Positions 11,065 to 61,581 are shown, numbered from the stretch's first letter. The stretch: DNA of 63,105 nucleotides from Bacteroidota bacterium (GCA_947456185.1 CANGPW010000003.1:1-63105), one strand, 5' to 3'. The notes: generated by a model from the sequence alone, not told the origin. Numbers and translations are program-made.

Positions 11065-11160
11065 GAATTTCGTTCCAATTCATTGGAATTTTTTTTTGAA
11101 TTTACTTATCAATTCATCCAACATTTAATCCCGATTTATCGGGACAAAATCCAACATTTT
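11065..11160. repeat. Heptamer arrays carrying two 16-nt mini-hairpins after the uvrB stop
   Basis: GAATTTC-G-TTCCAATTCATTGGAA-TT on the + strand. On the - strand: AAATGTT GGATTTT-G-TCCCGATAAATCGGGA-TT-AAATGTT GGATGAA. Confidence 0.75.
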
Positions 11161-13194
11161 CTACGCAATTTCTTCCATTTTCTTCTGTAAAGCAAACATC
11201 TCATCTCTTAAACGAGCAGCTTCCATAAAGTCCATATCCTTGGCAGCTTTTTGCATCCGTTTTTGAGTTTCGCCAATCATTTTTTCTAATTTTGGTTTAC
11301 TTAAATATTCTAAAATTGGATCAGCGGCTAAGTTCAATTCTGTAGGCTCTATATAAGCTTTTGCTTCAGGTGCAAATATTTGTTTTGCATCTGCCATGCT
11401 AGTTTGTTTTAGAATTTCCTCACGCGTTCGTTTAATAGTTTTAGGCGTTATGCTATGCAATGTATTATAAGCTATTTGTTTTTCACGTCTTCTATCCGTT
11501 TCATCAATGGTACGTTGCATGCTAGCAGTCATTCTATCGGCATACATAATTACTTTGCCTCTTTCGTTTCTTGCAGCTCTTCCTATGGTTTGTGTCAATG
11601 ATTTATCATTGCGTAAAAATCCTTCTTTATCTGCATCCATAATGGCTACCAAACTTACTTCCGGTAAATCTAATCCTTCGCGCAATAAATTTACGCCAAT
11701 TAATACATCAAAAACGCCTAATCGCAAATCTCTTAATATTTCTACTCGATCTAAAGTTTTTACCTCACTGTGAATATATCGGCATTTAATGTTAAGCTTG
11801 CCCATGTATTTACTTAACTCTTCCGCCATACGTTTGGTTAAAGTGGTTACCAATATTCGGTCACCCATTTTGATGCGTTCATCTATTTCATCTAGTAAAT
11901 CATCTACTTGATTTAAACTTGGACGCACTTCTATGGTTGGGTCAATTAATCCTGTTGGTCTAATAATTTGTTCCACTACCACCCCTTCCGTTTTTCTAAT
12001 TTCATAATCAGCAGGCGTAGCACTTACATAAATAGTTTGACCAATCATGTTTTCAAATTCATTGAATTGAAGCGGTCTGTTATCCATTGCCGATGGCAAC
12101 CTGAAACCATATTCTACTAAGTTTTCTTTACGGCTTCTATCGCCTCCATACATGGCTCGCACTTGCGGAATACTCACATGACTTTCGTCTACCATGAGTA
12201 CAAAATCTTTTGGAAAATAATCTAAAATGCAGAAAGGCCTGTCACCAGGTTTGCGTTTATCCATGTATCTGCTATAGTTTTCTATGCCGCTGCAATAACC
12301 TAACTCGCGCATCATTTCTAAATCAAAATTGGTGCGTTCTTCCAAACGTTTTGCTTCTATGTGTTTTCCAATAGATTTAAAATATTCAATTTGCGCTACC
12401 AAGTCATCTTGAATATCGCGCATGGCTTCATGCAATTGTTCTTTTGGAGTAACATAAATATTAGCTGGAAAAATGGCACAATCTTGCACCGATTCTTGTT
12501 TTTTTCCACTGATGGGGTCAATGATATCAATGCTTTCAATTTCATTTCCAAAAAATGAAATGCGAAAAGCAAAATCTGCATAAGCAGGAAAAACATCTAA
12601 CACATCACCTTTTACCCTAAAATTTCCTCTGTTAAAATCTGCAGTTGTTCTGCTATACAACGAATCAACTAAGGCATATAAAACAGTATTTCTAACAATG
12701 CTTTGCCCTACGTGCAATCTTACAACACTGCTTTCATAATCTTTCGGATTTCCTGCACCATAAATGCAACTAACGGAAGCAATTACCAATACATCTCTTC
12801 GGCCAGATATTAAAGCTGAAGTAGTAGAAAGTCTCATTTTTTCTATCTCTTCATTAATGGCCATGTCTTTTTCTATATAAGTATTGCTAGACGGAATAAA
12901 TGCTTCGGGCTGATAATAATCGTAATAAGAAACAAAATATTCGATTCTGTTCTCAGGGAAAAACTGTTTGAATTCACTGTAAAGCTGCGCCACCAAAGTT
13001 TTATTATGACTTAAAATTAAAGTAGGCCTTTGCACTTGTGCAATCACATTGGCCATGGTAAAAGTTTTACCACTTCCTGTAACTCCCAATAATACTTGAC
13101 TCTTATCGCCTCTGTTCAATCCTTCTACCAATGATTTGATAGCACTTGGTTGATCGCCAGTTGGCACATACTCGCTTGTTAACTTAAATTCCAC
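11161..13194 (-). CDS. uvrB: Excinuclease ABC subunit B
   Basis: GVTGSGKT, YYDYYQPEA, DESH, GRAARN and a C-terminal UVR domain; GTG start. Confidence 0.98.
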   Translation of the reverse strand: MEFKLTSEYVPTGDQPSAIKSLVEGLNRGDKSQVLLGVTGSGKTFTMANVIAQVQRPTLILSHNKTLVAQLYSEFKQFFPENRIEYFVSYYDYYQPEAFIPSSNTYIEKDMAINEEIEKMRLSTTSALISGRRDVLVIASVSCIYGAGNPKDYESSVVRLHVGQSIVRNTVLYALVDSLYSRTTADFNRGNFRVKGDVLDVFPAYADFAFRISFFGNEIESIDIIDPISGKKQESVQDCAIFPANIYVTPKEQLHEAMRDIQDDLVAQIEYFKSIGKHIEAKRLEERTNFDLEMMRELGYCSGIENYSRYMDKRKPGDRPFCILDYFPKDFVLMVDESHVSIPQVRAMYGGDRSRKENLVEYGFRLPSAMDNRPLQFNEFENMIGQTIYVSATPADYEIRKTEGVVVEQIIRPTGLIDPTIEVRPSLNQVDDLLDEIDERIKMGDRILVTTLTKRMAEELSKYMGKLNIKCRYIHSEVKTLDRVEILRDLRLGVFDVLIGVNLLREGLDLPEVSLVAIMDADKEGFLRNDKSLTQTIGRAARNERGKVIMYADRMTASMQRTIDETDRRREKQIAYNTLHSITPKTIKRTREEILKQTSMADAKQIFAPEAKAYIEPTELNLAADPILEYLSKPKLEKMIGETQKRMQKAAKDMDFMEAARLRDEMFALQKKMEEIA

Positions 13195-13198
13195 GCTG

Positions 13199-13206
13199 CG
13201 AATTTA
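13199..13206 (-). promoter_or_regulatory. -7 promoter-like element (TAAATTCG) 4 nt upstream of the uvrB GTG
   Basis: Same CAGC spacer as ccmC. Confidence 0.45.
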
Positions 13207-13246
13207 TGGTATTTTAGTGGTTGAAAAATGTAAACGTTTTATAAAA

Positions 13247-13276
13247 AAAAGGAGCAAGTTTTAATTTGCTCCTTTT
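13247..13276 (-). terminator. Intrinsic terminator after the TlpA gene
   Basis: AAAAGGAGCAA-N8-TTGCTCCTTTT with a U-tract on the minus strand. Confidence 0.75.
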
Positions 13277-13295
13277 AAATTTTTTATCAATAAAA

Positions 13296-13793
13296 TTATT
13301 TAGCCAATGCTTTGATTTTTTCTTCTAAAGTAAATTCATCACCTTCTAAATAACCTGTATGACTATAAACAACGTTTCCTGTTTTATCAATTAAAAAAGT
13401 GTGTGGAGGATTGATTACATTCATAGCGCGCATCAAATCACTATTAACATCCAATAAAATATCAAATGGCCAAGCTTGACCATCCACATATGGTTTTACT
13501 TTCATTACATTTCTAGCATTATCAATGGTAACAGCTACCACAATAATGTCGTATTTGCTTTTCCATTCTTCGTAAAGTTCATTAATATTATTCAATTCTT
13601 TTTTACAAGGTGTACACCAAGTAGCCCAAAAACTTACAACGACAATTTTGCCTTTTTTAGAATAATCACCAACATTTACTAATTTACCGTTTATATCTTT
13701 TAAATTTATATCAGGCAAGGTTTGTTTTTGTGCTTGCGCAAAAATTTGAGAATAGGCAAAAAGTGTTAATAGAGTGAAAATTAATTTTTTCAT
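13296..13793 (-). CDS. TlpA-family thiol-disulfide oxidoreductase
   Basis: SFWATWCTPC motif; signal peptide from MKKLIF (start 13793; ORF track 13856). Confidence 0.9.
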   Translation of the reverse strand: MKKLIFTLLTLFAYSQIFAQAQKQTLPDINLKDINGKLVNVGDYSKKGKIVVVSFWATWCTPCKKELNNINELYEEWKSKYDIIVVAVTIDNARNVMKVKPYVDGQAWPFDILLDVNSDLMRAMNVINPPHTFLIDKTGNVVYSHTGYLEGDEFTLEEKIKALAK

Positions 13794-13943
13794 GATGGCT
13801 AGGTTTTGGATTTGTAAAATAAATTTATAATTATCACTTATCAAAATTATTACCAAAAAATATTTTTAAATTTTTTATCAAATTCAAATAGCAACTTTGG
13901 CAAGCATTTTGTAATGTTGAAGAAAATTAAATTAAAACATTTT

Positions 13944-14528
13944 ATGAAAAAAACATTAATTGTATTGAGTACCATAGGAGTTTTATTGAGCTCAAGCTGT
14001 GGAAACAGAAAAATTGATAGAGTAGATCCAAACTTAGCAACAGATATTAGTGGGCGCTGGAACGATACTGATAGTAAATTGGTAGCTGAAGAGATGACAA
14101 AAGATGTGTTAACAAAACCATGGATTGGTAGCTTTGAAAAGACATCTAATCGCAAGCCAGTTATAATTATAGGCAGTGTTCGAAATAAAACGAGTGAGTA
14201 CATTGATGCAACAGGATTTATTAAAAATATGGAAGTCGCATTTATTAATGAAGGAAGAGTAAGTGTGGTTCAAAGTGCGGATGAACGTAATCAAGTTCGC
14301 GATGAACGTAACGACCAACAAACTTTTACTAGTGAGGAAACTAAAAAGAAATGGGGTAAAGAAAAAGGTGCTGATTTTATGATGAATGGAGTAATTGTGT
14401 CAATTACCGATGAATATAAAAACCGCAAGTCAGTTGCCTATCAAGTAAACTTAGAATTAACCGATTTAGAAACTAACGAGAAAGTTTGGATTGGCCAAAA
14501 ACAAATTAAGAAATTAATTAAAAACTAA
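13944..14528 (+). CDS. lpoB: Penicillin-binding protein activator LpoB-like lipoprotein
   Basis: Lipobox SSSC; GRWNDTDSKLVA, NKTSEYID, GADFMMNG and LELTDLETNEKVW motifs. Confidence 0.75.
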   Translation: MKKTLIVLSTIGVLLSSSCGNRKIDRVDPNLATDISGRWNDTDSKLVAEEMTKDVLTKPWIGSFEKTSNRKPVIIIGSVRNKTSEYIDATGFIKNMEVAFINEGRVSVVQSADERNQVRDERNDQQTFTSEETKKKWGKEKGADFMMNGVIVSITDEYKNRKSVAYQVNLELTDLETNEKVWIGQKQIKKLIKN

Positions 14529-14548
14529 ATTTCTAAAACAAATAAAAA

Positions 14549-14572
14549 GCCTACTAAACAAGTAGGCCTTTT
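14549..14572 (+). terminator. Putative terminator between lpoB and the next gene
   Basis: GCCTACT-AAACA-AGTAGGC followed by CTTTT. Confidence 0.55.
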
Positions 14573-14603
14573 ATTTAAAATTCTTCATTTTTAAAATATT
14601 TCA

Positions 14604-16025
14604 TTGATCAAAAATAAAGCATACATATTATTGCTATTTGCCTTAACTATGCTGAGTGCATGTGCTACTTTTTACCAAAAGCAAGCAGATGTTATGGATG
14701 CTGTTTATAATGGGAATATCAATAGAGCAGAAGCATTAATGAACGATGCAAGGTGGCATAAACCTAAAAGAAACAGATTACTTTTTTACTTAAATAAAGG
14801 AACTATTTTATGGATGAATGGAAAAAATATTGAAAGCAATCAATATTTTTTAAAAGCCGATTTATTTGTAGAAGATTATAGAAAAAACTATGTTACAGAA
14901 TTGGCAAGTGTTCTTATCAACCCAAATTATAATACCTACATCGGTGAATCATTTGAACAAATATTGCTACATTATTATGCAACCATCAATTTTGTTCAAT
15001 TAGGTGATTTGGATAATGCTTTGGTGGCTTGTAAAAGAATGATTGCCACAAGCCAAAAAATAAATGATTATTTAGAAAATAAAAACAAATATAGACGTGA
15101 TGCTTTTGCTCATAATTTATTAGGAATGATATATGATGCGCAAGGTGATTATAACAATGCTTTTATTGCTTATAGAAATTCACTCAATATTTATAAAGAA
15201 GATTATAAGCCACTGTTAGGAACTGAAATTCCATTACAACTAAAAAAAGATATTTTACGAACTGCCAAAACCATTTACTTTATCGATGAAGTAGAAAAAT
15301 ATGAAGCTGAGTTTAATTTAAAAGCTGAACTTTTACCTGAAGGTTATGCTCCTTTAGTGTTTTTTTGGAACAACGGACTTGGTCCTGTAAAAGATGAAAA
15401 TTCTGTCAACTTTGTTACTTATCCTTCGCAAAATGGATATGTAAATTTTGTAAATGTGGAGCTAGGTTTAAATTTTCCTATATATGTTGGAAATGAAGAA
15501 GACAGAAAAAAAGTTACAGCTTTAAATATTGTAAGAGTTGCTTGGCCCAAATATGTAACTCGAGTTCCAACTTATAAAAATGCAGTTTTAAAAGACAGTT
15601 TAAACAATGTATTTAAATTGGATGTAGGAGAAGACATTAACGCAATTGCATTCAAAAGTTTAGACGATAGAATGTTAAAAGAAATTGGCGAAGCCATTTT
15701 ACGATTTGCGTTGAAGCAAGCAGCTGTTGCCTTAGCAAAAAAAGAAAATGAAGGTGCAGGCGCGGCCTTAAGTATTTTAAGTGCGGCCTCAGAAAAAGCA
15801 GATACCCGCAATTGGCAATTTTTACCTTATTCTATAAATTATACTCGTGCTTATTTACCAATTGGCAAGCAAAATATTGTGCTTGAAACTTCTTCAAACG
15901 ACAGTATTGAAAAGAATAATTTCTTTGTAAATATAGAAAAAGGGAAAACCAATTTTCAAGCATTTCAAACTTTACAATTTGATGGTTTTGCCGATAAATA
16001 TGGCAATAGAATCAATTTGTATTGA
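14604..16025 (+). CDS. COG3014-like TPR lipoprotein
   Basis: Lipobox LSAC; helical N-terminus; YIGESFE and ADTRNWQFLP motifs; adjacent to lpoB. Confidence 0.7.
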   Translation: MIKNKAYILLLFALTMLSACATFYQKQADVMDAVYNGNINRAEALMNDARWHKPKRNRLLFYLNKGTILWMNGKNIESNQYFLKADLFVEDYRKNYVTELASVLINPNYNTYIGESFEQILLHYYATINFVQLGDLDNALVACKRMIATSQKINDYLENKNKYRRDAFAHNLLGMIYDAQGDYNNAFIAYRNSLNIYKEDYKPLLGTEIPLQLKKDILRTAKTIYFIDEVEKYEAEFNLKAELLPEGYAPLVFFWNNGLGPVKDENSVNFVTYPSQNGYVNFVNVELGLNFPIYVGNEEDRKKVTALNIVRVAWPKYVTRVPTYKNAVLKDSLNNVFKLDVGEDINAIAFKSLDDRMLKEIGEAILRFALKQAAVALAKKENEGAGAALSILSAASEKADTRNWQFLPYSINYTRAYLPIGKQNIVLETSSNDSIEKNNFFVNIEKGKTNFQAFQTLQFDGFADKYGNRINLY

Positions 16026-16026
16026 T

Positions 16027-16102
16027 AAACAATAGACCATAGTAAAAAACTTTTGACTTTGGTTCATAAACCTACAACAATCGTCTATGGACTATCTATT
16101 AT
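16027..16102. repeat. Facing heptamer arrays between convergent genes; one overlaps the tcdA stop
   Basis: AAACAAT AGACCAT AG on the left; CAACAAT CGTCTAT GGACTAT CTATTAT on the right; ATAGACCATAG / CTATGGACTAT pair at 10/11. Confidence 0.5.
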
Positions 16103-16823: not shown

Positions 16824-16831
16824 TTATATTT

Positions 16832-17482: not shown

Positions 17483-17485
17483 TAA

Positions 17486-20855: not shown

Positions 20856-22409
20856 ATGGCAAAAGATAAACCAAGCATTCCAAAAGGTACCCGCGATTTT
20901 GGCCCAGAAGAAGTAGCCAAACGAAAATATATTTTAAATACCATTGAAAAAGTTTTTATAAAATATGGCTTTATGCCAATAGAAACGCCTACTATGGAAA
21001 ACCTGATTACCCTTACTGGAAAATATGGTGATGAAGGTGATAAGCTGCTTTTTAAAGTACTGAATAGTGGAGATGCGTTTAAAGATTTTACACTTGAAGA
21101 TATTGAATTAATTTTATCCCAAGCGAAGGAAAATGAAAAGAATATTTTAAAAAAAGAAATTCAAGAAAAAGCAAAATCGCAACAACCACAAATAAGAAAT
21201 GAGTTGGTTCATCAACAATCTTCAAAAACTCTTGAAAATATTATAATTGAAACGAAATCAAGTCCTGAAAGAATTGCTGATGATGTAACTAAATTGATGC
21301 GAAAAGCATCCGAAAAAGGCCTTCGTTACGATTTAACCGTACCATTTGCGCGTTACGTGGTAATGAATAGAAATGAGATAACTTTTCCTTTCAAACGCTA
21401 TCAAATGCAACCTGTTTGGCGAGCTGACAGACCACAAAAAGGACGTTACCGCGAGTTTTGGCAATGCGATGCCGATGTTGTTGGAAGCGATAGTTTGTTA
21501 CACGAACTAGATTTGATAAACATTTATAACGAAGTGTTTAAGTGTTTGGGAATAGCTGTAGAAATAAAAATAAATAACAGAAAAATATTAGCAGGAATAG
21601 CAGAAGTTGTAAAAGGAATTGAACACCTTAATACCATTGCGGTAGCAATAGATAAACTTGATAAAATAGGCAAAGATGGAGTAAGTAAAGAGTTAACATC
21701 ACTTAATTTTACAGAAATAGAAATTGCTACTCTTTTTGATATCATTACCATTCAAGGAACCGAGGCAGAAATGCTAGCCACTTTAAATATAAAATTACAA
21801 AACTCAACCGAAGGTTTAATTGGAATTGATGAATTGAGTTTTATTTTTAAACAAATTAATGCTGTATCTAATCAACAAATAAATCTAAAAACCGACTTCT
21901 CTTTGGCACGAGGTTTATCGTATTACACGGGTTGTATTTTTGAGGTTGTAGCCACTGGGGGTTCGTTAAGAAGCAGTATTGGCGGTGGTGGAAGGTATGA
22001 CAACTTAACTGGAAATTTTGGATTAGATGGCGTTTCGGGTGTTGGAATCTCGTTTGGATTAGATAGAATATACGATGTAATTGATGAACTAAAATTGTTC
22101 CCTGAAACATTATCGCAAGGTAGCAGCAAAGTGTTAATTTGTGCCAATGATTCTATTGAAAATATTGAGCTTGCTTCAGTATTAAAAATATTGAGTAAAC
22201 TTAGAAATGAAGGCATTGCATCGGAAATTTATTCTGAAAAAATAAATGTAAAAAAACCTTTAGAAAAACCCATTAAATATGCAAGCAGCAAAAAAATTGC
22301 ATTTGCTCTAATTTATACCGAAAACGAAAGTTTAAAACTTAAAAACCTAACATCTGGATTTCAAGAGGAATTGACTATTGAAGAGATTATTGAAAGATTG
22401 AAAGATTAA
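20856..22409 (+). CDS. hisS: Histidine--tRNA ligase with a long internal insertion
   Basis: PKGTRDF, LRYDLTVP, RADRPQKGRYREFWQCD, LARGLSYYTG and GGGRYD motifs. Confidence 0.96.
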   Translation: MAKDKPSIPKGTRDFGPEEVAKRKYILNTIEKVFIKYGFMPIETPTMENLITLTGKYGDEGDKLLFKVLNSGDAFKDFTLEDIELILSQAKENEKNILKKEIQEKAKSQQPQIRNELVHQQSSKTLENIIIETKSSPERIADDVTKLMRKASEKGLRYDLTVPFARYVVMNRNEITFPFKRYQMQPVWRADRPQKGRYREFWQCDADVVGSDSLLHELDLINIYNEVFKCLGIAVEIKINNRKILAGIAEVVKGIEHLNTIAVAIDKLDKIGKDGVSKELTSLNFTEIEIATLFDIITIQGTEAEMLATLNIKLQNSTEGLIGIDELSFIFKQINAVSNQQINLKTDFSLARGLSYYTGCIFEVVATGGSLRSSIGGGGRYDNLTGNFGLDGVSGVGISFGLDRIYDVIDELKLFPETLSQGSSKVLICANDSIENIELASVLKILSKLRNEGIASEIYSEKINVKKPLEKPIKYASSKKIAFALIYTENESLKLKNLTSGFQEELTIEEIIERLKD

Positions 22410-22439
22410 AAGATTACAAGGTTGGAAGATTAGAAAATT
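22392..22439 (+). repeat. Octamer tandem array (RRAAGATT) overlapping the hisS stop
   Basis: GAAAGATT GAAAGATT AAAAGATT ACAAGGTT GGAAGATT AGAAAATT. Confidence 0.8.
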
Positions 22440-22493
22440 ACAATAAATTGGTCTTTAATCTTGTCGAAACGATTTCCTTATGAAGCTTTGCAA

Positions 22494-22525
22494 CAGAACT
22501 AAGAAACTAAGTACTAAAAACTATA
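22494..22525 (+). repeat. Heptamer array (AAGTACT/AAAAACT) just before hutH
   Basis: CAGAACT AAGAAACT AAGTACT AAAAACT; reverse-complement family of 33053-33097. Confidence 0.6.
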
Positions 22526-22529
22526 AAAC

Positions 22530-24020
22530 ATGTACGAAATAACTACCCAAATAAGCATTGAAGAAATTCAAGATATTATTGCTAATAACAAGCAAATTAA
22601 ATTAAGTGAAGATGCCAAAACTCGCATAGTAAATTGCAGAACTTATTTAGACGAAAAATTAGCCAATAACGATCAACCAATTTATGGTATCAATACAGGT
22701 TTTGGTTCTTTGCATAGCACCAAAATAAGTAACGATAATTTAGAACAATTGCAAGAAAATTTGTTACTAAGTCATGCTTGCGGAATAGGTGATTTAGTGC
22801 CACATGAAATTATAAAAATCATGTTATTACTAAAGGTTCAATCCTTGTCTTATGGCCATTCTGCTGCGCAATTAGATACAGTTGAAAGATTGATTTATTT
22901 TTTTAATAACAATATTTTACCGGTAGTTTTTGAATTAGGTTCTTTAGGTGCCAGTGGCGATTTAGCTCCATTAGCTCACTTAAGTTTACCGCTTATTGGC
23001 GAAGGAAATATTTATGTTAAAGAAAGTTCGAAGTTCGAAATTCGAAGTTCGAAGTTCATATTGGAAGAACATAAACTAAATCCTATAAAACTTAAATCGA
23101 AAGAGGGATTAGCATTAATAAATGGTACTCAATTTATGAGTGCTTATGGTGTATATTGTTTGATAAAAGCCAACCAACTTTTAAACAAAACCGACTTTAT
23201 TGCAAGCATTTCTATTGATGCTTTTGACTGTAGGTTAGAGCCTTTTCATCATTTATTACACGATGTTCGTCCGCATAAAGGACAAATAGCAACTGCTAAA
23301 AAAATATTGGAAAATTTAGCCGATTCCGAAATTGCAAAGCAACATAAATTGCAAGTTCAAGATCAATATGCGTTCAGGTGTATTCCGCAAGTGCACGGTG
23401 CAAGTAAAGATGCCATTGAACATATCAATAAAATATTTACTATCGAAATAAATGCTGTTACTGATAATCCAAATGTATTTGCTGAGGAAGATTTGATACT
23501 TTCGGGTGGGAATTTCCATGGACAAACATTGGCCATTCATTTAGATTTTTTAGCCATTGCTTTGGCTGAATTAGGCAGTATTTCTGAACGTAGAACTTAT
23601 CAATTAATTTCGGGACAAAGGAATTTACCCGCATTTTTGGTAAGTAATCCTGGTTTAAATTCTGGCTTTATGATTCCACAATACACTGCTGCAAGTATTG
23701 TGAGTCAAAACAAGCAATTATGTACGCCTGCTTCTGTTGATTCAATAGTGAGCAGTAACGGCCAAGAAGACCATGTAAGTATGGGTGCAAATGCTGCAAC
23801 AAAATGCTTAAGAGTAGTTAAAAATTTAGAGCGAATTGTGGCCATAGAATTACTAAACGCAAGTCAAGCTTTGGAGTTCAGACGTCCATTAAAAAGTGCT
23901 TCAAAAATTGAAACATATATAGCTGCCTACCGCAAATTAGTTCCATTTGTAACCAAAGATAGATTCCTACACGATGATATTGAAAACAGTGTGCTGTTTT
24001 TGAATAATACAGCTGTTTAA
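22530..24020 (+). CDS. hutH: Histidine ammonia-lyase
   Basis: YGINTGFG, GASGDL (MIO), KEGLALINGTQ, QDQYAFRC, GGNFHG and QEDHVSMG motifs. Confidence 0.97.
   Translation: MYEITTQISIEEIQDIIANNKQIKLSEDAKTRIVNCRTYLDEKLANNDQPIYGINTGFGSLHSTKISNDNLEQLQENLLLSHACGIGDLVPHEIIKIMLLLKVQSLSYGHSAAQLDTVERLIYFFNNNILPVVFELGSLGASGDLAPLAHLSLPLIGEGNIYVKESSKFEIRSSKFILEEHKLNPIKLKSKEGLALINGTQFMSAYGVYCLIKANQLLNKTDFIASISIDAFDCRLEPFHHLLHDVRPHKGQIATAKKILENLADSEIAKQHKLQVQDQYAFRCIPQVHGASKDAIEHINKIFTIEINAVTDNPNVFAEEDLILSGGNFHGQTLAIHLDFLAIALAELGSISERRTYQLISGQRNLPAFLVSNPGLNSGFMIPQYTAASIVSQNKQLCTPASVDSIVSSNGQEDHVSMGANAATKCLRVVKNLERIVAIELLNASQALEFRRPLKSASKIETYIAAYRKLVPFVTKDRFLHDDIENSVLFLNNTAV
23024..23058 (+). repeat. Intragenic heptamer tandem array in hutH
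   Basis: AAGTTCG AAGTTCG AAATTCG AAGTTCG AAGTTCA. Confidence 0.85.
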
Positions 24021-33056: not shown

Positions 33057-33097
33057 TTTTTTTTAGTACTTAGTACTTAGTTTTTAGTACTTAGTTA
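33053..33097 (+). repeat. Heptamer array (TTAGTAC/TTAGTTT) overlapping the stop codon
   Basis: TTAGTAC TTAGTAC TTAGTTT TTAGTAC TTAGTTA. Confidence 0.85.
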
Positions 33098-33153: not shown

Positions 33154-33179
33154 TCCTTCGACTCCGCTCAGGATGACAA
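33154..33179 (-). repeat. REP-like element TTGTCATCCTGAGCGGAGTCGAAGGA
   Basis: Same family as 1184 and 10959, with CATCC...GGA in place of CACCC...GGG. Confidence 0.8.
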
Positions 33180-33209
33180 ATAAGGCTTATTGCATATAGC
33201 AAATTGAAT

Positions 33210-35169: not shown

Positions 35170-35182
35170 AGGAAATTATGGA

Positions 35183-35217
35183 AAATTCGAATTGTTAAAT
35201 TCTAAATTCGAATTTGT
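35183..35217 (+). repeat. Heptamer array (AAATTCG family)
   Basis: AAATTCG AATTGTT AAATTCT AAATTCG AATTTGT. Confidence 0.55.
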
Positions 35218-45557: not shown

Positions 45558-45588
45558 GTAGAGACGCGATTCATCGCGTCTTTTTTTA
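45558..45588 (+). repeat. GTAG-type REP hairpin doubling as a terminator
   Basis: GTAG-AGACGCGAT-TC-ATCGCGTCT followed by a T tract. Confidence 0.75.
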
Positions 45589-45648
45589 TAATTCAAAAGT
45601 AAATATCAAACGGTATATTTCGTAAGTCAATAAAGTTATCTAATGGAA

Positions 45649-45780
45649 CAGGATTTCTTTTCTTTCTTCTTTCTTTTTCCATTGCTGAAAAAGAAATCCT
45701 GCCTTGCAGGACTAGACAAAAATTAGCTTCCACGCACAAGGCCAGGGCTGGCCCGCATTTTTGTCGGGCCAATGCACATC
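45649..45780. other. GC-rich, heavily self-complementary intergenic element (candidate ncRNA or non-autonomous mobile element)
   Basis: Pairings CAGGATTTCTTT/AAAGAAATCCTG, CCTG/CAGG, GACAAAAAT/ATTTTTGTC and TGGCCC/GGGCCA. Confidence 0.5.
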
Positions 45781-45937
45781 GTTAATGGAATAATTGAAAT
45801 ATAATTTAGTTTTTTCTAATATGACTATGTTTTATGTTTCAATGTGATTTTTTATTTCTCCAATAATAAGTTTTTAGTATAAAACATCATTGCGAGGGAT
45901 AATTTTTTTCAAAAAAATCAATATAAAATGATGTTGT

Positions 45938-46033
45938 GTCATTCAGTAGTACCGCTAAAGCGGTATCCTTTCCTTGGCATCTAACTTTGAATTTTAAAAG
46001 CGCTTAATAAACAAAGGGGATGCGCTGCATGAC
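45938..46033 (+). repeat. Degenerate GTCAT...ATGAC REP-like element containing a mini-hairpin
   Basis: GTCAT/ATGAC and GCATC/GATGC arms; internal TACCGC-TAAA-GCGGTA at 45950-45965. Confidence 0.55.
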
Positions 46034-46095
46034 GAGTTTTTATTGTAATAGAATTTAGTTTTTATAAAATACGTCATTGCAATTAAATCCTTTCC

Positions 46096-46758: not shown

Positions 46759-46767
46759 TTATTAATT

Positions 46768-46815
46768 GAAAGACTAAAAGATTGAAAGATTACAAGATTA
46801 CAAAATTAGAAGGTT
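46768..46815 (+). repeat. Octamer tandem array (RRAAGATT)
   Basis: GAAAGACT AAAAGATT GAAAGATT ACAAGATT ACAAAATT AGAAGGTT. Confidence 0.8.
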
Positions 46816-46946
46816 ATGTACTGAAAAAGTTTTTATTACTGTGTAAAAATTTTATTGCCAGTTGCCTTAAGCCAGAGGCCATTTATAAAAACAAATTTTT
46901 TAATTAAGAATCTTACTTACATATTTGCTGCAAATAAAATTTAAAA

Positions 46947-49946: not shown

Positions 49947-49993
49947 AATTAGTTTAAATTATTCCTTAAAGTTAGGAATGGTTTAAACTAATT
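49947..49993. terminator. Long hairpin between convergent genes, overlapping the tsaB stop
   Basis: AATTAGTTTAAA..ATTCCT / AGGAAT..TTTAAACTAATT. Confidence 0.6.
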
Positions 49994-50681
49994 TTTTTGC
50001 AACAGTTCCTACAAAATCTTTTAAATAAAAAGGTTCAAAATAAGCCACATCTTCAAACTCTTTTTTATCAAAGGCTGCTTGTGCCAATGATGAAATGAAA
50101 CTGGCATTACAAACATATCCAATTTCGAATTTCGTCCCGCTAAAGCGGGATTGAGTTTCGAATTTACCAATGCATTTTTCCGCCCCATTTCCAATAAAAA
50201 CTATTTCATTTTGAAGTAATTCTTCTTGGAACGAATGTTCATCTATAATCTTGGCTTGAGTGGGTAAAATTTCGGCTAATTGATTATTAAATAAAGCGCA
50301 ATAAACTTCCATTCGCCTCGCATCAATCATGGGGCAAATCAATCCTTTGTAATTTCGGTGATTCGTTAAATATCCGTTGGCTAAACTTTGTAAAGTATTA
50401 ATGGCAATCATTGGTATTTGCAAAGCATAACAATATCCTTTTACCGATGAAACACCCACACGCAAACCAGTATAACTTCCTGGTCCTTTACTCACCGCCA
50501 CAGCATTTAAATCTTGTAAAGTAACACCTGCAATGTCTAAAGCTTTTTGTACTAAAATATGTAATTGCGAAGCATGGTTATTGCCTAATTTATCCTCGGC
50601 AAGCGAAATGGTTTGACCATCTTTTGCAATAGCAACCGAACAAATTTCAGTAGCAGTTTCTATACAAAGAATCAATGCCAT
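49983..50681 (-). CDS. tsaB: tRNA t6A biosynthesis protein TsaB
   Basis: IETATEICS, GPGSYTGLRVG, PMIDARRMEVY and FEPFYLKDF motifs. Confidence 0.95.
   Translation of the reverse strand: MALILCIETATEICSVAIAKDGQTISLAEDKLGNNHASQLHILVQKALDIAGVTLQDLNAVAVSKGPGSYTGLRVGVSSVKGYCYALQIPMIAINTLQSLANGYLTNHRNYKGLICPMIDARRMEVYCALFNNQLAEILPTQAKIIDEHSFQEELLQNEIVFIGNGAEKCIGKFETQSRFSGTKFEIGYVCNASFISSLAQAAFDKKEFEDVAYFEPFYLKDFVGTVAKKLV
50121..50167 (+). repeat. Intragenic heptamer array plus mini-hairpin module in tsaB
   Basis: AATTTC GAATTTC-G-TCCCGCTAAAGCGGGA-TT-GAGTTTC GAATTTAC. Confidence 0.85.
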
Positions 50682-52759: not shown

Positions 52760-52860
52760 AATTATAAATTATGAATTTTGATTGTTGAATTTTGAATTAT
52801 AAAGTACCAACATCGGGAAAGTATGAAGTATGAATGATGAAGTATAAAGGATGAATAATG
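52760..52860 (+). repeat. Two adjacent heptamer arrays separated by a 17-nt spacer
   Basis: AATTATA AATTATG AATTTTG ATTGTTG AATTTTG AATTATA; then AAGTATG AAGTATG AATGATG AAGTATA AAGGATG AATAATG. Confidence 0.85.
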
Positions 52861-52872
52861 AAAAAAAAATAT

Positions 52873-53559: not shown

Positions 53560-53671
53560 TAAATCTAACTAGATGGAATTTATAAAAATTTATTTTAAAT
53601 CCGTAGTCACATTTACAAATGCCATTTCACAAGGCTACGAATAGTTAAGAACAGAAGTAATTTTCGTTTAC

Positions 53672-55069: not shown

Positions 55070-55420
55070 ATTTTTTGGCTTCTTGCCACTTTTATTATTT
55101 ACTTACCGTTATTTCAGATTGCTTTATAACTATTTTATTTATCATATTGGGTAATCAGCCCTTTGGTTTTCATGTATTGACTTTTTTAAAACTTGCTCAC
55201 TAAATAATTTTACCAGAATATTTTATTAAAACCTTACTAAATCTAACCATTTTCAGCTGATTTTAAGTGGGTTTATATTTTCAAACATATCTTTTATTTT
55301 CAACATAACTATTATTTCTAAACTAATTAAAACTTGAACAAATGCCCTAAGTGTTTATTTTATGGAAATAATTAATGCTTGTTTTTGACTAAATATATCA
55401 TTTAACGAGTATGGAAACTC

Positions 55421-56221: not shown

Positions 56222-56224
56222 TGT

Positions 56225-56427
56225 TTAATTATAATTACTCCTAAAATTTAAATCTTCACCAAATGTCCTAAGTGTTTTTTTACAGAAAAAATGAGTGGAA
56301 CTATTCCACAAAAAAAATGAATAAAGGTAATGTGTACATAGCCATCATAATGGTATGTGTGTAATAAAAACATAAGGTTTGCAAGTATGCAAAAAAGCAG
56401 ATGTTTGTATTTAATAATGGTGTTCAT
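56225..56427 (-). pseudogene. Possible frameshifted small-protein gene
   Basis: MNTIIKYKHLLFCILANL in one frame and MMAMYTLPLFIFLWNSSTHFFCKKTLRTFGEDLNF in another; a homologous remnant lies at about 55339-55377. Confidence 0.3.
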
Positions 56428-56590
56428 GAGCTAATTGTTTTAGTTTTTAAAAATATCCCTATGCAATAATATGAATTATAATTGATTTGATTTGATATAA
56501 TTTGTTACGCAAAATAACTAAGTGATGTTTATATAAAATGCAGCACTTTATGAGAATTTTTTTTCAATTTACTGCTTTTATTTTATTGGA

Positions 56591-56604
56591 TTTACCAAGG
56601 TCAA
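56591..56604 (-). promoter_or_regulatory. Possible Crp/Fnr-family operator TTGAC-N4-GTAAA
   Basis: One mismatch from the palindrome TTGAC-N4-GTCAA, in a divergent intergenic region. Confidence 0.25.
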
Positions 56605-56752
56605 ATTGCACACCGATTAAATAAAAAGTAGGAGGGATGACAGTTGAAAATGGATAAAATAATAATTTTTTTATTCAATTTGGTTTGATATTCCTAATTT
56701 ATTCTAATTTGCGATTTTATTAGCAATTGAATATAAAAATACAACACATCAT

Positions 56753-57538
56753 ATGGATTTTAAAGTAAGAACATTAGCAGAAGTAAGCGCATCAGGACAA
56801 GAAGTAGAAGTACTTTTTTGGGTAGGTTGTGCTGGAAGTTTTGATGAACGCGCTCAAAAAATAACCAAAGCCGTTGCTAAATTATTACACCATGCAAATA
56901 TTACTTTTGCCATATTAGGAACTGAAGAAGCTTGTACTGGTGATCCTGCTAAACGTGCTGGAAACGAGTTTTTGTTTCAAATGTTGGCCATGCAAAACAT
57001 TACAACCATGAATGCTTATGGTGTAAAAAAAATAGTTACTGCTTGCCCACATTGTTTTAATACCTTAAAAAACGAATACCCACAATTAGGTGGAATGTAC
57101 AATGTAGTTCATCATACAGAGTTAATAAACGAACTATTAGAAGCAGATAAATTAAGCATCACTGGTGGCGCATTCAAAGGTAAACGCATAACTTACCACG
57201 ACAGCTGTTACCTTGGCCGTGCCAATAATATATATGAAGCACCTCGTCAAATAATAGAACGTTTGGACGTGGAATTGGTAGAAATGAAACGTGCCAAGGC
57301 AAATGGATTATGTTGCGGTGCTGGTGGAGCACAAATGTTCAAAGAAGCAGAAACAGGAAATAAAGAAGTGAATGTGGAACGAGCCGATGACATACTTGAA
57401 ACCAAAGCAAATATTGTTGCCGCTGCTTGTCCGTTTTGTATGACCATGCTCCGTGATGGTATTAAACACAATAACAAAGAAGAGGAAGTTCAAGTATTGG
57501 ATGTAGCTGAGTTAATAGCTAACGCAATGGATTTGTAA
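56753..57538 (+). CDS. (Fe-S)-binding CCG-domain oxidoreductase subunit (GlpC/HdrB-like)
   Basis: WVGC, CTGD, CPHC, YHDSCYLGR, CCGAGG and ACPFC motifs. Confidence 0.9.
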   Translation: MDFKVRTLAEVSASGQEVEVLFWVGCAGSFDERAQKITKAVAKLLHHANITFAILGTEEACTGDPAKRAGNEFLFQMLAMQNITTMNAYGVKKIVTACPHCFNTLKNEYPQLGGMYNVVHHTELINELLEADKLSITGGAFKGKRITYHDSCYLGRANNIYEAPRQIIERLDVELVEMKRAKANGLCCGAGGAQMFKEAETGNKEVNVERADDILETKANIVAAACPFCMTMLRDGIKHNNKEEEVQVLDVAELIANAMDL

Positions 57539-57544
57539 ATTTTT

Positions 57545-57887
57545 TTATAAAATCTCTAAAACCTTTTCAGGTGGACGGCCAATAACTGCTTTATCGCCTT
57601 TTATTATGATGGGTCTTTCAATCAAAATTGGATTGGTAACCATAATTTGAATCCATTCAGCATTGGTAAATGTTTTGTCTTTATAGTTTTCTTTGTAAAC
57701 GGCTTCTACTTTTCGAATTAAGTTAATAGGTGCCATGTTTAGTTGCTTTAAAATGATTTCTAACTCTTTAAATGTTGGAGGATTTTTTAAGTAATCTACC
57801 ACATTAAATTCAACATTTTTTTTCGTTTAAAATAGCTAAAGTATCCCGGCTTTTTCCGCATCGATTATTGTGGTATATTGTTATCAT
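57545..57887 (-). pseudogene. arsC: Glutaredoxin-type arsenate reductase (ArsC family) split by one extra A in an A8 run; possibly a sequencing error
   Basis: MITIYHNNRCGKSR...LNEK in one frame and NVEFNVVDYLKNPP...LIERPI...IGRPPE in the next. Removing one A at 57816-57823 gives a contiguous 113-aa protein. Confidence 0.8.
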
Positions 57888-57992
57888 ATTATCTTTAATT
57901 ATTGGCGTTGTGCAGCACCAATCACAGTTAGAAAAATTTGCTAAAAATCCTTTTCCCTCGCATTTCGGACATACATATCCACAGGTTGCCAT
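57888..57992 (-). CDS. Cys-rich zinc-ribbon-like peptide in frame with the arsC N-terminus
   Basis: MATCGYVCPKCEGKGFLANFSNCDWCCTTPIIKDN runs into MITIY with no stop; TATATTTG promoter motif lies 4 nt upstream. Confidence 0.5.
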
Positions 57993-58020
57993 TGGACAAA
58001 TATAGTTTTTTGAAAATAAA

Positions 58021-58050
58021 AAACGAGACCTCCTTGCGGAGACCTCGTTT
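58021..58050 (-). terminator. Intrinsic terminator of the RND operon
   Basis: Minus strand AAACGAGGTCTCC-GCAA-GGAGGTCTCGTTT with two G-U pairs, a GNRA loop and a U-tract. Confidence 0.85.
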
Positions 58051-58095
58051 AGTATATGAAACAAATATACACTTTACCCCAAAGTGTAATATAAA

Positions 58096-61000
58096 CTATA
58101 ACGATGTATCGCTAGATTTGTTTTTCCTATTTGAAAAATATTTCAATTTCATTGATTCTGAGAGCATTAACATTACAGGCACCAAAATTAAAGTCAATAA
58201 AGTGGCAAATAATAATCCAAAAATCATAGTCCATGATAAAGGACCCCAGAAAGCTACACTATCGCCACCAAAGTAAATATGTGGATTTCCTTCAGAGAAT
58301 AAAGTTACAAAATCAACGTTTAAGCCAATTGCCAAAGGTATTAAACCCAACATAGTAGCAGTAGCAGTTAATATAACCGGAGTCATACGTGTTTTGCCAG
58401 CTTCTATAATTGCTTCTTTCAGTTCCATTCCTTCCTCTAAAAGTAAGTCGGTAAATTCTACTAATAGAATTCCGTTTCTTACCACAATTCCCGCCAGCGC
58501 TACCACTCCAACACCTGTCATTAGTATTGAAATATCCATTTTAAATATAGAAAATCCTAATAACACGCCAATGATACTTAATACTATTTCACTTAAAATA
58601 ATAACAGGTTTTGATATAGAGTTAAACTGAGTTACCAAAATCAAAAAGATTAAACCCAAAGCAATTAACATGGCCTTTCCAAGGAATGCACCTGTTTCCG
58701 CTTGTTGTTCTTGTTCACCTGTCATATCGGTAGTTACAGTATTTGGTAATTCATATTTAGCAACGGCTTTTTTTACCTGTTCCACAACTTCATTGGCATT
58801 ATAACCAGAGAGTACGTTTGAACCAAGTGACACTATGCGTTTTTGATTTTTACGTTTGATACCACCATAAGTTTGGCTGTATTTTAACTTAGCTACCGAT
58901 GATAATGGAACAGAACGTAACATTCCACCCATATTCATATCACGGTAAGTAATTTTCAAATTCATTAAAGCATCAATGTTATTTCTTTGGTCAAATTTGT
59001 AACGCACTTGAATAGGATAATCGTCTTTAGCATCTTTAAATTTAGAAACTTCTAAACCAAATATCGCACCACGTAAAGCCTGTCCAATTTGAGCTGAAGA
59101 AATTCCTTCTCTATTTGCACGTTCTCTATCTACTTCTATTAAAATCTCTGGTTTGTTTGTAACCAAATCAGATTTTAATTCTTCCACACCTGGAATTTGC
59201 AATGAGTCTAAATAATGTTTCAAGCCTTTAGAAACAGCTGTCAACTCATCAAACTCTTCACCAATAATTTCAATATTAACTGGCTTACCTGTTGGAGGTC
59301 CACCTTTTTCTTGTTCTACTGTAATTAATGCACCTGGTATGTCTTTTACTACTTTTCTTATTCTATCTAAGTAAGGTAATGTTTCCTCCCCATTACGTTT
59401 CCCAAATTCAACAAATGCAACAGTTACTTTTCCTAAATTAGATTTTGCACCTGCTTCAAATTGGGTAGGGTCACCAGCTCCAATTGCAACATTTGATATA
59501 ACAGATTCTACTATTTTATTGCTATCACCAATTTCTTTATAAATTTTTTCCTCTACTAATTTAGTAATTGAATCGGTTACAATTTGATCAGTTCCAACAG
59601 GCATTTCAATATATGTGTAAACAAAATTTGGTGATGCTTGAGGGAAAAATACCACTTTTGGAGACCTTACTTTTACTAAAAATATACTAAAGAATAACAA
59701 ACCAATTGTTCCAACTAATAAAAATACAGGTCTACTTCCTTTTAAACACCAAGTAATTAATTTTCTATAACCTTCTTGCACACTTGGCCATGTTTTGTTT
59801 TGGAATTTTTCAATGTATTTATACATTACAAATCTGTTCAAGCAATATAAACCATATATTACCACTACAAAATTTCCTAATCCAAAGTTTCCTGTTAAAT
59901 AAATGAGTAAAGCTATTACTCCAAAAACAATTGATGTAATCATAAACCCTTTTTTGTTTTTACGTTGCGCTTCTTCTTCTTCATGAGTTTTCATAAAGCC
60001 AACAGCAAATACTGGATTAATAATATATGCCACCACTAACGATGCTAATAAAGTAATGATTAAAGTTACTGGTAAAAAAAACATGAATTTACCAATAGTT
60101 CCTTGCCAAAAAGCCAAGGGAATAAATGGAGCTAACGTAGTTAATGTTCCTGATAACACAGGAACAAAAACTTCGCCTGCCGCTAATTTGGCGGCCTTTT
60201 TTATGGGGACTTTTCCGTTTTCAAATATCCGATGGGTGTTTTCTACCACCACAATGGCATCATCTACTACTATTCCTAAGGCCAATAAAAATGCAAATAA
60301 TACAATCATATTTAAAGTAAAACCAATGGCTGGTAAAAACAAAAACGCAATGGCCATAGATAAAGGAACCGACATAGCAACAAAAAGTGCATTGGTAGCT
60401 CCCATAAAAAACATAAGGATTATTGTTACCAATATAAATCCAATAACAATGGTGTTTATTAAATCGTGTAATGTAGTTCTCGTTTTGTCTGATTGGTCGC
60501 CAGTAATAGTAATTTTTAAGCCATCAGGAAAATGAGCTTTTTTCATTTCCTCATTTATTTTTCTAATTTTATCACTTGCATCAATTAAGTTTTGACCACT
60601 CTTTTTTACAATATTTAAAGTAATTACATTTTTATGTTCCAAACGAGCAAAACTTTCCTGCTCCTTAAAACCATCTTTTACTTCAGCAATATCGCGCAAA
60701 TAAACAATTGCACCGCTAGCAGAACGAATGGCCAAATCACCAATTTTTCTTGCTTCTACATATTGTCCAACTACATTTATTTCACGTAATAAACCATCCA
60801 TTTTAACCGAACCACCACTAATGGTTACGTTTTCATTTCCTATTGCTTGCATTACATCATACATAGCCACGTCAGCTATTTGCATTTTGTACATATCAAG
60901 GTTTATTTGAACTTCTCTATCCAATGCTCCAACAATATCGGCACGAGTAATTTCTTTTAAACTTTCAATTTTGTCTTGTAAATCTTCAGCATATTCCTTC

Positions 61001-61479
61001 AATTTATCTAAAGGATAATCGCCCGATAAATGCACAAACATGATAGGCATTTGCGACACATCAATTTCTACAACAGTTGGCTCGCTAGTTAATACTTGAG
61101 GTAGTTCTTTTCTTATTTTATCAACTTGATCTTTTACGCGTTGCTTTGCAATAGGAATTTGAACATCAGTATTAAATTCAACAGTTACTAAACTTACATT
61201 TTGTAAAGAACTACTGGTTACTTTTTTTACACCCGAAATAGATTTTACACTTTTTTCAATGTGTTTGGTAACTATATTCTCCATGTCTTTTGGAGAAGTT
61301 CCTGCTTGAACTGTACTAATAATTATTTGAGGGAAAACCACTTCAGGAAACTGCTCTTTTGGCAATCCGTTATAACTCATTATGCCCGCAAGCGTAATGA
61401 TGATGGTCATGATATAAATACTTGTCTTGTTATTTATTGCCCAACTCGAGGGTTTAAATTCTTTTATTTTATCTAGCAT
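58096..61479 (-). CDS. RND efflux permease (AcrB family)
   Basis: GIVVDDAIVVVEN and GIVVRNGILLVEF motifs, R.TPVILT, two large periplasmic domains. Confidence 0.95.
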   Translation of the reverse strand: MLDKIKEFKPSSWAINNKTSIYIMTIIITLAGIMSYNGLPKEQFPEVVFPQIIISTVQAGTSPKDMENIVTKHIEKSVKSISGVKKVTSSSLQNVSLVTVEFNTDVQIPIAKQRVKDQVDKIRKELPQVLTSEPTVVEIDVSQMPIMFVHLSGDYPLDKLKEYAEDLQDKIESLKEITRADIVGALDREVQINLDMYKMQIADVAMYDVMQAIGNENVTISGGSVKMDGLLREINVVGQYVEARKIGDLAIRSASGAIVYLRDIAEVKDGFKEQESFARLEHKNVITLNIVKKSGQNLIDASDKIRKINEEMKKAHFPDGLKITITGDQSDKTRTTLHDLINTIVIGFILVTIILMFFMGATNALFVAMSVPLSMAIAFLFLPAIGFTLNMIVLFAFLLALGIVVDDAIVVVENTHRIFENGKVPIKKAAKLAAGEVFVPVLSGTLTTLAPFIPLAFWQGTIGKFMFFLPVTLIITLLASLVVAYIINPVFAVGFMKTHEEEEAQRKNKKGFMITSIVFGVIALLIYLTGNFGLGNFVVVIYGLYCLNRFVMYKYIEKFQNKTWPSVQEGYRKLITWCLKGSRPVFLLVGTIGLLFFSIFLVKVRSPKVVFFPQASPNFVYTYIEMPVGTDQIVTDSITKLVEEKIYKEIGDSNKIVESVISNVAIGAGDPTQFEAGAKSNLGKVTVAFVEFGKRNGEETLPYLDRIRKVVKDIPGALITVEQEKGGPPTGKPVNIEIIGEEFDELTAVSKGLKHYLDSLQIPGVEELKSDLVTNKPEILIEVDRERANREGISSAQIGQALRGAIFGLEVSKFKDAKDDYPIQVRYKFDQRNNIDALMNLKITYRDMNMGGMLRSVPLSSVAKLKYSQTYGGIKRKNQKRIVSLGSNVLSGYNANEVVEQVKKAVAKYELPNTVTTDMTGEQEQQAETGAFLGKAMLIALGLIFLILVTQFNSISKPVIILSEIVLSIIGVLLGFSIFKMDISILMTGVGVVALAGIVVRNGILLVEFTDLLLEEGMELKEAIIEAGKTRMTPVILTATATMLGLIPLAIGLNVDFVTLFSEGNPHIYFGGDSVAFWGPLSWTMIFGLLFATLLTLILVPVMLMLSESMKLKYFSNRKNKSSDTSL

Positions 61480-61506
61480 GTTTTTGCTTTTAATTATTAA
61501 TTTATC

Positions 61507-61581
61507 GTCATTGCGAGCTTAGCGTGGCAATCTCTAAATTATTAGATTACTTCATCCCGACTAATCGGCATTCGCAATGAT
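61507..61581 (+). repeat. GTCATTGCGAG...CGCAATGA REP-like element containing a mini-hairpin
   Basis: Arms GTCATTGCGA/TCGCAATGAT and GCAATCT/AGATTAC; internal TCCCGA-CTAA-TCGGCA. Confidence 0.75.

Follow-up and report, generated by a model that had tools for sequence, protein, structure and literature searches.

What do five short hairpins of one geometry, scattered through the coding and intergenic sequence of a bacterial contig, have to do with each other, and how did they come to lie there? The question is raised by a 63,105-nt stretch from a Bacteroidota bacterium (GCA_947456185.1, CANGPW010000003.1:1-63105), here called the window, in which a sequence-only reading had picked out 16-nt palindromes with a 6-bp stem and a 4-nt loop at 11073, 11129, 45950, 50135 and 61555, had grouped them as one strand-asymmetric family and had suggested a small module moved by an enzyme encoded elsewhere. 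Positions are those of the whole stretch throughout, and labels such as L002 or L141 denote loci from other genomes. All five 16-mers, with the flanks quoted for them, are present at their positions, and the five are not one family: only those at 11073, 11129 and 50135 form a real module, a 19-nt block nested in tandem arrays of 7-nt units (heptamers). In its core the finding is perhaps, at a probability of about 0.4, that of a non-autonomous DNA repeat resembling the repetitive extragenic palindromic (REP) sequences and moved in trans, with a RayT-type enzyme of the Y1/HUH transposases as the best candidate.

A 19-nt block within heptamer arrays

The geometry alone is at chance level, with 49 perfect 6-4-6 hairpins in the window against 43.6 ± 6.9 in dinucleotide shuffles. 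What is in excess are the hairpins with at least four G/C stem pairs (4 against 0.58 expected, 0.015 of the shuffles reaching 4), those with a TAAA or TTTA loop (6 against 1.6, at a fraction of 0.005) and the full G-hairpin(TAAA)-TT form (2 against 0.02), together with repeats in the flanks. These last are the strongest signal and the decisive feature, and had been only half noticed before. Exact direct repeats of 9-11 nt bracket the hairpins at 11073, 11129 and 50135, in all three at a period of exactly 33, which is two 7-nt units plus the 19-nt block, so that the earlier reading of three copies as 19-nt blocks interrupting heptamer arrays was right and the observation is, for these three, stronger than first realised. 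A hairpin with an 8-nt flanking repeat occurs three times in the window, where 200 shuffles gave a mean of 0.115 and a maximum of 2. The direct repeat is TTTCGAATTT (10 nt) in module A and AAATGTTGGAT (11 nt) in module B, and the flanks of module C are TTTGAATTT (Table 1). The frame GAATTTCG-hairpin-TT-N7-GAATTTAC, already noted as common to the 11073 and 50135 copies, is present at 11065 and 50127. Modules B and C, whose palindromes differ, point towards each other at a distance of 56 nt, module B beginning 16 nt past the uvrB stop codon in the sense orientation, and module A lies inside tsaB (49983-50681, minus strand), antisense to the gene. A CRISPR-like reading of the 33-nt period was considered and set aside; there is one unit per site, and the ‘repeat’ differs among sites.

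A covariance model built exclusively from the sequences of other genomes and then run on the window finds modules A (46.7 bits, E 5.7e-5), B (42.7 bits, E 2e-4) and C (28.2 bits, E 0.03) strand-specifically, and also the copies in L002 and L007. The opposite strand of the two TCCCGN copies of the window (11129 and 50135) scores only 12-13 bits, in keeping with the strand asymmetry that had been claimed, for a module of about 19 nt or, with its flanks, about 44 nt. Arrays that have no hairpin align to the model as matches with the hairpin deleted. At 45950 and 61555 the model has no match (E above 10); both are inner hairpins of unrelated GTCAT...ATGAC composites, and the grouping of all five as one family is unsound.

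The TCCCGN copies number about six in some 150 kb of lineage sequence, far above chance, and one and the same stem stands in unrelated contexts, namely an AAATGTT/GGATTTT array (11129), an AATTTCG array (50135) and an AAGTATG array (L007 3689), with further copies in hisS without an array (L141 348) and at L013 2067. The G before and TT after the hairpin that had been described are indeed found with the copies in RATTTYG arrays, and are not found with the L007 copy at 3689 (G...AA) or the hisS copy in L141. The stem changes between the five copies had also been called compensatory. That argument is circular, the copies having been picked as perfect hairpins, and because orthologous copies decay (see below) the supposed covariation is no evidence of selection for structure.

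Table 1. Modules, arrays and composite elements of the window
Feature	Positions	Strand	Sequence and layout
Module A	50121..50164, hairpin 50135-50150	+	AATTTCG AATTTCG [TCCCGC-TAAA-GCGGGA TTG] AGTTTCG AATTTAC
Module B	11115..11158, hairpin 11129-11144	-	AAATGTT GGATTTT [G TCCCGA-TAAA-TCGGGA TT] AAATGTT GGATGAA
Module C	11059..11102, hairpin 11073-11088	+	TTCCAA-TTCA-TTGGAA, A+T-rich, layout as modules A and B
Decayed copy	52805..52818	+	TACCA-ACA-TCGGGA; heads AAGTATG array 52819-52862; by alignment with L007
AATTTTG-type heptamer array without hairpin	52767..52798	+	flanks of the family model matched, 16-nt hairpin positions deleted, 14.8 bits
GTCAT...ATGAC composite palindromic element	45938..46033	+	inner hairpin TACCGC-TAAA-GCGGTA at 45950-45965; multibranch fold, z -2.4
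GTCATTGCGAG...TTCGCAATGAT composite palindromic element	61507..61581	+	imperfect inner TCCCGA-CTAA-TCGGCA at 61555-61570; z -3.7
AAGTTCG/AAATTCG heptamer array, nearly five units	23024..23057	+	inside hutH (22530-24020, +); unit type as in module A flanks; encodes ESSKFEIRSSKF

Filled and empty sites in relatives

At four loci occupancy of the module differs between genomes, giving the filled and empty orthologous sites to which the sequence-only reading had looked as a sign of mobility. The loci are tsaB, where two lineages show the difference, the region behind uvrB, hisS, and the region upstream of the E1 dehydrogenase gene. The TsaB of relatives (85-92% identical) differs almost only in the segment that the module encodes. 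Read on the RATTTYG strand, the window has AATTTCG AATTTCG [TCCCGCTAAAGCGGGATTG] AGTTTCG AATTTAC, and in L004, L005 and L013 a GATTTTG replaces the 19-mer block. In L002 and L007 it is the coding strand that reads GATTTCG [TCCCGCTTTTGCGGGATTG] GATTTCG, the cassette being inverted relative to the gene, and L003 has an inverted array of this type with a heptamer instead of the block. Both orientations leave the reading frame open, giving KFETQSRFSGTKFE the one way, as in module A, and NFGFRPAFAGLDFGFE the other way. In an AlphaFold model this segment forms a coil, predicted at low confidence, that joins a helix to a strand, and it falls outside the region that aligns with solved TsaB structures. 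For the inverted cassettes (L002 1053-1096 and L007 6337-6380, with 50121-50164 as their counterpart in the window), in-place inversion and two acquisitions are both conceivable.

After uvrB, L141 has TGATTTT GAATTTT and no hairpin where the window has the block followed by AAATGTT, and other relatives have wholly different heptamer arrays at the site. In hisS it is L141 that has an intact hairpin, TCCCGA-TGCA-TCGGGA (348-363), followed by a second TCCCGA half-site, and the window is 24 nt shorter there. Upstream of the E1 dehydrogenase gene an intact TCCCGA-TACA-TCGGGA stands at the L007 site (3689, in an AAGTATG array), and the window copy has decayed. Another kind of array also occurs downstream of uvrB: L142 and L143 (about 12240-12440), from a relative with 97% identical UvrB, have a long tandem array with a unit of about 47 nt (...GCACAGTGCGGAATGGTATATCCAATATTTGCTATAGGTATCT...).

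An identical TsaB protein is present on a 143.8-kb metagenome scaffold (ENA ERZ28612949), and the metagenome runs that contain the sequence are from freshwater or lakes. Public metagenome contigs have the filled tsaB allele also in one close strain; within populations, no insertion or deletion in tsaB is seen in these contigs, which are assemblies and not reads.

Decay of copies and the level of the symmetry

Copies decay, and do so without compensation. At the tsaB site of L149, TCTCAT stands opposite the GCGGGA arm. In the L141 orthologue of module C, TTCCAA stands opposite TCGGAA, the palindrome is the imperfect TTCCAATTAATCGGAA and the upstream repeat is lost; the window copy at 52805-52818 has lost its 5′ arm relative to the intact copy in L007. 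A search for two mutually compensating changes at the tsaB orthologue P0003 (‘SSHFSGT’) turned up, in the DNA, a decayed 5′ arm instead. Since old copies decay uncompensated, loops tend to be palindromic and orientation ignores the neighbouring genes, the evidence points to a selfish repeat whose symmetry is that of DNA, and not to a structured RNA or a terminator. No rule was found for the orientation of the hairpins with respect to neighbouring open reading frames (ORFs), and no RNA or protein function for the module was seen. Rfam 15 at the gathering score has no match in the window and, in 18 loci from other phyla, has only unrelated families and none at the module, its permissive mode adding chance-level matches only. 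None of the tsaB-locus sequence is present in the RNA runs among the public data covered. Integron attC sites, IS200/IS605 ends and programmed-frameshift signals were also considered and rejected, as the paired sites or the coding context by which each is defined are lacking.

The same layout in other phyla

A scan of one genome per species with the pattern ATTTYGTCCCGNNNNNNCGGGAT, drawn from the window copies and imposing a conserved stem and an upstream hexamer, yielded at least 118 loci. Counts and layouts in this section are those among the matches listed. The arrangement of heptamers, palindrome and heptamers is found in many phyla and in multiple copies within single genomes. The sixth stem pair is complementary in 93 of 119 matches, with 25% expected, and the seventh in 58 of 93 foreign hairpins, with 23 expected. 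Of these 93, 23 have a 4-nt ‘loop’ that is a palindrome in its own right, where 5.8 would be expected, GNRA occurring once and UNCG not at all. The downstream flank is periodic at 7 nt with the consensus TTG RATTTYG RATTT; the 8-mer upstream is found again downstream in 23 of 87 cases, compared with 2 of 87 distant control windows, and the portion of the upstream flank that the pattern left free is repeated downstream 16 times, compared with 3.4 ± 1.7 after permutation of the flanks among loci. The intervening block, judged by eye, is mostly 19 nt.

In a metagenome-assembled genome (MAG) of Phycisphaerae with 63% G+C, five near-identical copies of about 46 nt lie at unrelated loci (L031, L059, L061, L068 and L118), the element being the A+T-rich GCGATTTTGGATTTTG-TCCCGGCGCGCCGGGA-TTGGATTTTGGATT. 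A Bacteroidetes MAG has three near-identical copies, and another near-identical set comprises five loci, of which one Nitrospirae MAG contributes two. L063, from another phylum, has one 16-mer within two different arrays, one of them of CAGCAAT units.

A proposed movement in trans and its competitors

A selfish repeat of the REP kind is suggested because new copies are perfect and old ones decaying, because of palindromic symmetry, indifference to gene direction, a sequence that is specific to the genome, multiple copies and in-frame residence within genes. In this lineage the repeat is the G+C-rich 16-bp palindrome TCCCGN-N4-NCGGGA, with G or CG before it and TT(G) after it making up the 19-nt block, set inside or at the edge of T-rich 7-nt arrays of the RATTTYG type. 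The likeliest mechanism would have the palindrome fold into a hairpin while single-stranded at the replication fork, where a trans-acting enzyme would cut and join it beside a short T-rich target, TTYG. Heptamer arrays, with many TTYG targets and easy slippage, would then be hot spots, and the two properties together would explain the copy-specific direct repeats on either side. New copies are perfect palindromes that appear at new sites and are lost again, decaying once inserted by point mutation, and insertions are tolerated also in the surface loops of housekeeping proteins where the net change preserves the reading frame.

A Y1/HUH transposase of RayT type is a reasonable candidate for the enzyme, by analogy with related Bacteroidota, where Y1_Tnp genes annotated as RayT are common and have clustered hairpins, with stems of 6-7 bp, on their flanks. 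In L146 (9259-9705 and 9710-9930) and in L147 (3900-3990 and 4450-4545), the latter from a different organism with 38% G+C, clusters of different short hairpins bracket genes for a Y1_Tnp protein of 148 residues, and two hairpins are conserved between these loci, CAACCAC...GTGGTTG just after the stop codon and AATCCC-TTC-GGGATT. Among the best 120 homologues of the L146 Y1_Tnp, none is on the 3.34-Mb or the 143.8-kb contig of the lineage. Intragenic REPs, and CGTC- or TGTC-tagged REPs without a known transposase, have been described, Bacteroidetes included (PMC3733652).

Several observations weigh against such a repeat moved by such an enzyme. There is no transposase and no Y1/HUH gene among the proteins of the 63-kb window, so any enzyme involved must act in trans, and none of the hairpins flanking the RayT genes of L146 and L147 is TCCCGN. 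TTYG precedes the hairpin in five of eight lineage copies, which makes the proposed target rule a partial one. Loops vary between copies while stems are kept, and this is not predicted by simple copying and pasting from one master. The conserved stem and upstream hexamer of the foreign loci, as they were built into the scan pattern, are not independent evidence. Lastly, the net difference between filled and empty sites is +12 nt in all three comparisons, a 19-mer standing for a 7-mer; a clean 19-nt insertion would give +19, so that an extra slip by one unit, or a different event, is needed. In tsaB the reading frame accounts for +12. After uvrB it gives no such explanation, and this keeps two rivals alive, templated repair between distant sites and local fold-back.

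In the first of these, dispersed heptamer arrays would serve one another as templates through microhomology, by ectopic repair or gene conversion, the hairpin patch being copied along without a dedicated enzyme. We consider it somewhat unlikely. It fits with the presence at several loci, in either orientation, of arrays that share a unit, with the frame that the 11073 and 50135 copies share, with the array in hutH that overwrites a variable segment and leaves its length nearly unchanged, with the tsaB cassette in both orientations at one site, and with a length difference of 12 nt rather than 19. Against it, the palindrome is also found in unrelated arrays (AAGTATG, and CAGCAAT in L063) and in the array-free hisS, where there is no homology for conversion to use.

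If the module instead originated locally, slippage with intrastrand template switching would have done the work, a 12-nt fold-back completing a palindrome on a GGATT-like unit, and the likeness of the copies would be convergent. The net +12 nt in three comparisons would fit, the 3′ arm with its tail (CGGGATT, GGGATTG) resembles a GGATTTY unit, and array turnover is extremely fast, with a different array after uvrB in every relative; heptamer repeats in general are over-represented in bacteria and considered slippage-prone (PMC4692102). Identical stems are nevertheless found in arrays without any GGAT unit and in hisS, and near-identical elements of about 46 nt lie at the unrelated loci of the G+C-rich Phycisphaerae genome, which together make local origin an unlikely account of the family.

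Function at the RNA level, as intrinsic terminators, as mRNA-stabilising 3′ structures or as protein-binding sites with U-rich heptamers beside the stem, is very unlikely. The position and sense orientation of module B after uvrB would suit it, and so would the classical terminator, built on a CCCGA...TCGGG core, that the more distant relative L146 has at the uvrB 3′ site; REPs are frequently found 3′ of genes (PMC3733652), and heptamer repeats have been proposed as sites for post-transcriptional regulators (PMC4679880). An intrinsic terminator was looked for and rejected, as there is no terminator-like site in 10800-11400 and no T run, the tsaB copy is intracoding and orientation is unbiased. 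A true terminator lies in contrast at 45563-45580, AGACGCGA-TTCA-TCGCGTCT, and is common to the window and L010. The cassette inside tsaB in both orientations, the absence of stable tetraloops from what are palindromic loops, the decayed or absent orthologous copies and the lack of an Rfam match also argue against RNA function.

That unrelated hairpins came together by chance in an A+T-rich genome, though compatible with the total count of 6-4-6 hairpins and with two of the five belonging to other elements, is scarcely credible, and is refuted for 11073, 11129 and 50135 by the enriched hairpin classes, the flanks at period 33, the matches to a model of foreign origin and the gain and loss at orthologous sites.

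The other hairpins and the mosaic around them

The window has a G+C content of 31.5% and carries Bacteroidota housekeeping genes, with type 9 secretion sorting domains, DUF6029, uvrB, hisS, hutH, dnaG and tsaB among its annotations; no tRNA gene and no Rfam match was found in its 63 kb. Its UvrB is 81% identical to that of strain UKL13-3. Heptamer arrays are its predominant multi-copy tandem repeats.

The hairpins at 45950 and 61555 belong to other repeat types of this mosaic intergenic DNA. The stem at 61555 is family-like, in a different context and without a match in Rfam. About 500 nt at 45585-46087, which hold GTCAT...ATGAC elements, that around 45950 included, and a TTTC-rich tract, and which adjoin the terminator common with L010, are absent from L010 (12363-12368) between the genes for an ABC-F protein and thiamin pyrophosphokinase. 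A repeat of about 28 nt, TTTGTCACCCTGAGCGGAGTCGAAGGGCAA, has four copies, at 1183-1213 and 7687-7715 on the plus strand and at 10966-10996 and 33155-33180 on the minus strand; each adjoins a heptamer array, so that the intergenic DNA is a mosaic of several kinds of repeat, rather like a bacterial interspersed mosaic element (BIME).

Some widely separated arrays have a unit in common and run in opposite orientations, the pairs being 7638-7670 with 52817-52858, 22505-22542 with 33059-33096 and 1236-1267 with 35178-35209, and the units AAGTATG, TTAGTAC and AAATTCG; the arrays themselves thus behave as dispersed families. The segment ESSKFEIRSSKF that is encoded by the array inside hutH is just two residues longer than its counterpart in solved histidine ammonia-lyases, from which it follows that the array replaced native sequence rather than simply being added to it. 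Similar arrays of 8-nt units, ATTGAAAG and ATTAAAAG, lie at 22389-22443 and 46765-46816, immediately behind hisS in the one case and immediately upstream of the thiamin pyrophosphokinase gene in the other. At 1098-1128 a hairpin GCCAAA...TTTGGC has for its loop 2.3 copies of the heptamer AAACTCG.

Significance

Heptamer tandem arrays are over-represented in many bacteria and have, to our knowledge, no accepted origin or function; we likewise know of no enzyme for many families of REP-like palindromes, the CGTC class included. The locus physically links the two, as a constant palindrome is nested in arrays of differing units. Close relatives differ in which sites hold that palindrome, coding loops of tsaB and hisS tolerate it, and the architecture is met again in distant phyla, including in a genome with 63% G+C. 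If the link between array and palindrome is mechanistic, it would give a handle on the origin of both kinds of repeat, and if it is not, what remains is still a well-defined new REP-like family in uncultured freshwater Bacteroidota. There is a practical warning as well, in that hypervariable protein segments can be created by short in-frame repeat insertions.

The cross-phylum architecture of heptamers and palindrome is the part worth following. The sequence (RATTTYG)2 – TCCCGN-N4-NCGGGA – TTG – (RATTTYG)2 might stand for a separate class of miniature mobile DNA that spans phyla and makes up a third REP-like superfamily next to GTAG and CGTC, one that targets or generates 7-nt arrays; the proposition is bold and for the present rather unlikely. 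Were it true, the long-unexplained excess of heptamer repeats in bacterial genomes would have a mechanistic origin, and repeat DNA would have a route by which to remodel the loops of essential proteins.

Comparison with known systems

The CGTC(TGTC)-tagged REPs (Di Nocera et al. 2013, PMC3733652) are, as the module seems to be, short dispersed palindromes, genome-specific and multi-copy, mostly intergenic and sometimes intragenic, often then in genes of DNA repair or tRNA metabolism, and arranged as singles, facing pairs or clusters. The tag itself can be read at the module, where CGTC (50133-50136, and in L002 and L007) or TGTC (11129) spans the junction. In the superfamily the tag, CGTC with the variants TGTC and CCTC, is terminal and unpaired, whereas in the module its TC forms the first two paired bases. 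The palindrome of 16 nt and the block of 19 nt are just under the 20-40 bp of that class. That class also has an 8-9 bp stem whose first two pairs are A-T, a loop of 4-5 nt and a CCA-like tail; the module differs, with a stem of 6 bp (7 with G.T) that opens with T-A and then C-G and a tail TT(G), and agrees only in its 4-nt loop.

With the REP doublets forming hairpins (REPINs) and their REP-associated tyrosine transposases (RAYTs; Bertels and Rainey 2011, PMC3116915), the module has in common that it would be a non-autonomous palindromic repeat, theirs presumably being mobilised in trans by a Y1 transposase of which the genome has a single copy. No doublet of two identical REPs was seen, in distinction from REPINs, and no RAYT flanked by the module hairpin was found. 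The nearest to a doublet are modules B and C, which face each other with different palindromes, and the Phycisphaerae locus L061, with an inverted heptamer set about 30 nt away.

Heptamer arrays are known in their own right, as the short tandemly repeated repetitive (STRR) sequences of cyanobacteria, as TAACTGA repeats in Beggiatoaceae, Cyanobacteria and Bacteroidetes (PMC4679880) and as GGGAATC in Xanthomonas (PMC4692102). The accessible parts of the latter two reports describe intergenic 7-nt arrays that, as here, are highly variable between close relatives, with several unit types per intergenic region and occasional arrays in ORFs; they describe arrays alone, and within those parts a constant palindrome nested in differing arrays does not appear.

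Miniature elements derived from IS200/IS605 have left and right subterminal hairpins and a fixed target, and the module departs from them in having a single palindrome and TTYG at five of eight copies. The small dispersed repeats (SDRs) of heterocystous cyanobacteria, attributed to Elhai et al. in 2008, are reportedly mobile modules of about 21-27 nt, inserted with precision at short target sequences of defined type, and no enzyme is known for them. The module is similarly very small and perhaps mobile, and the SDRs differ in being reported from Nostocaceae only. Rickettsia palindromic elements (RPEs) are in-frame palindromic insertions in protein genes, mostly of about 100-150 bp, that are tolerated at surface regions; the module too lies in frame within genes, where it adds 12 nt net, or four residues, within a loop that is itself derived from repeats.

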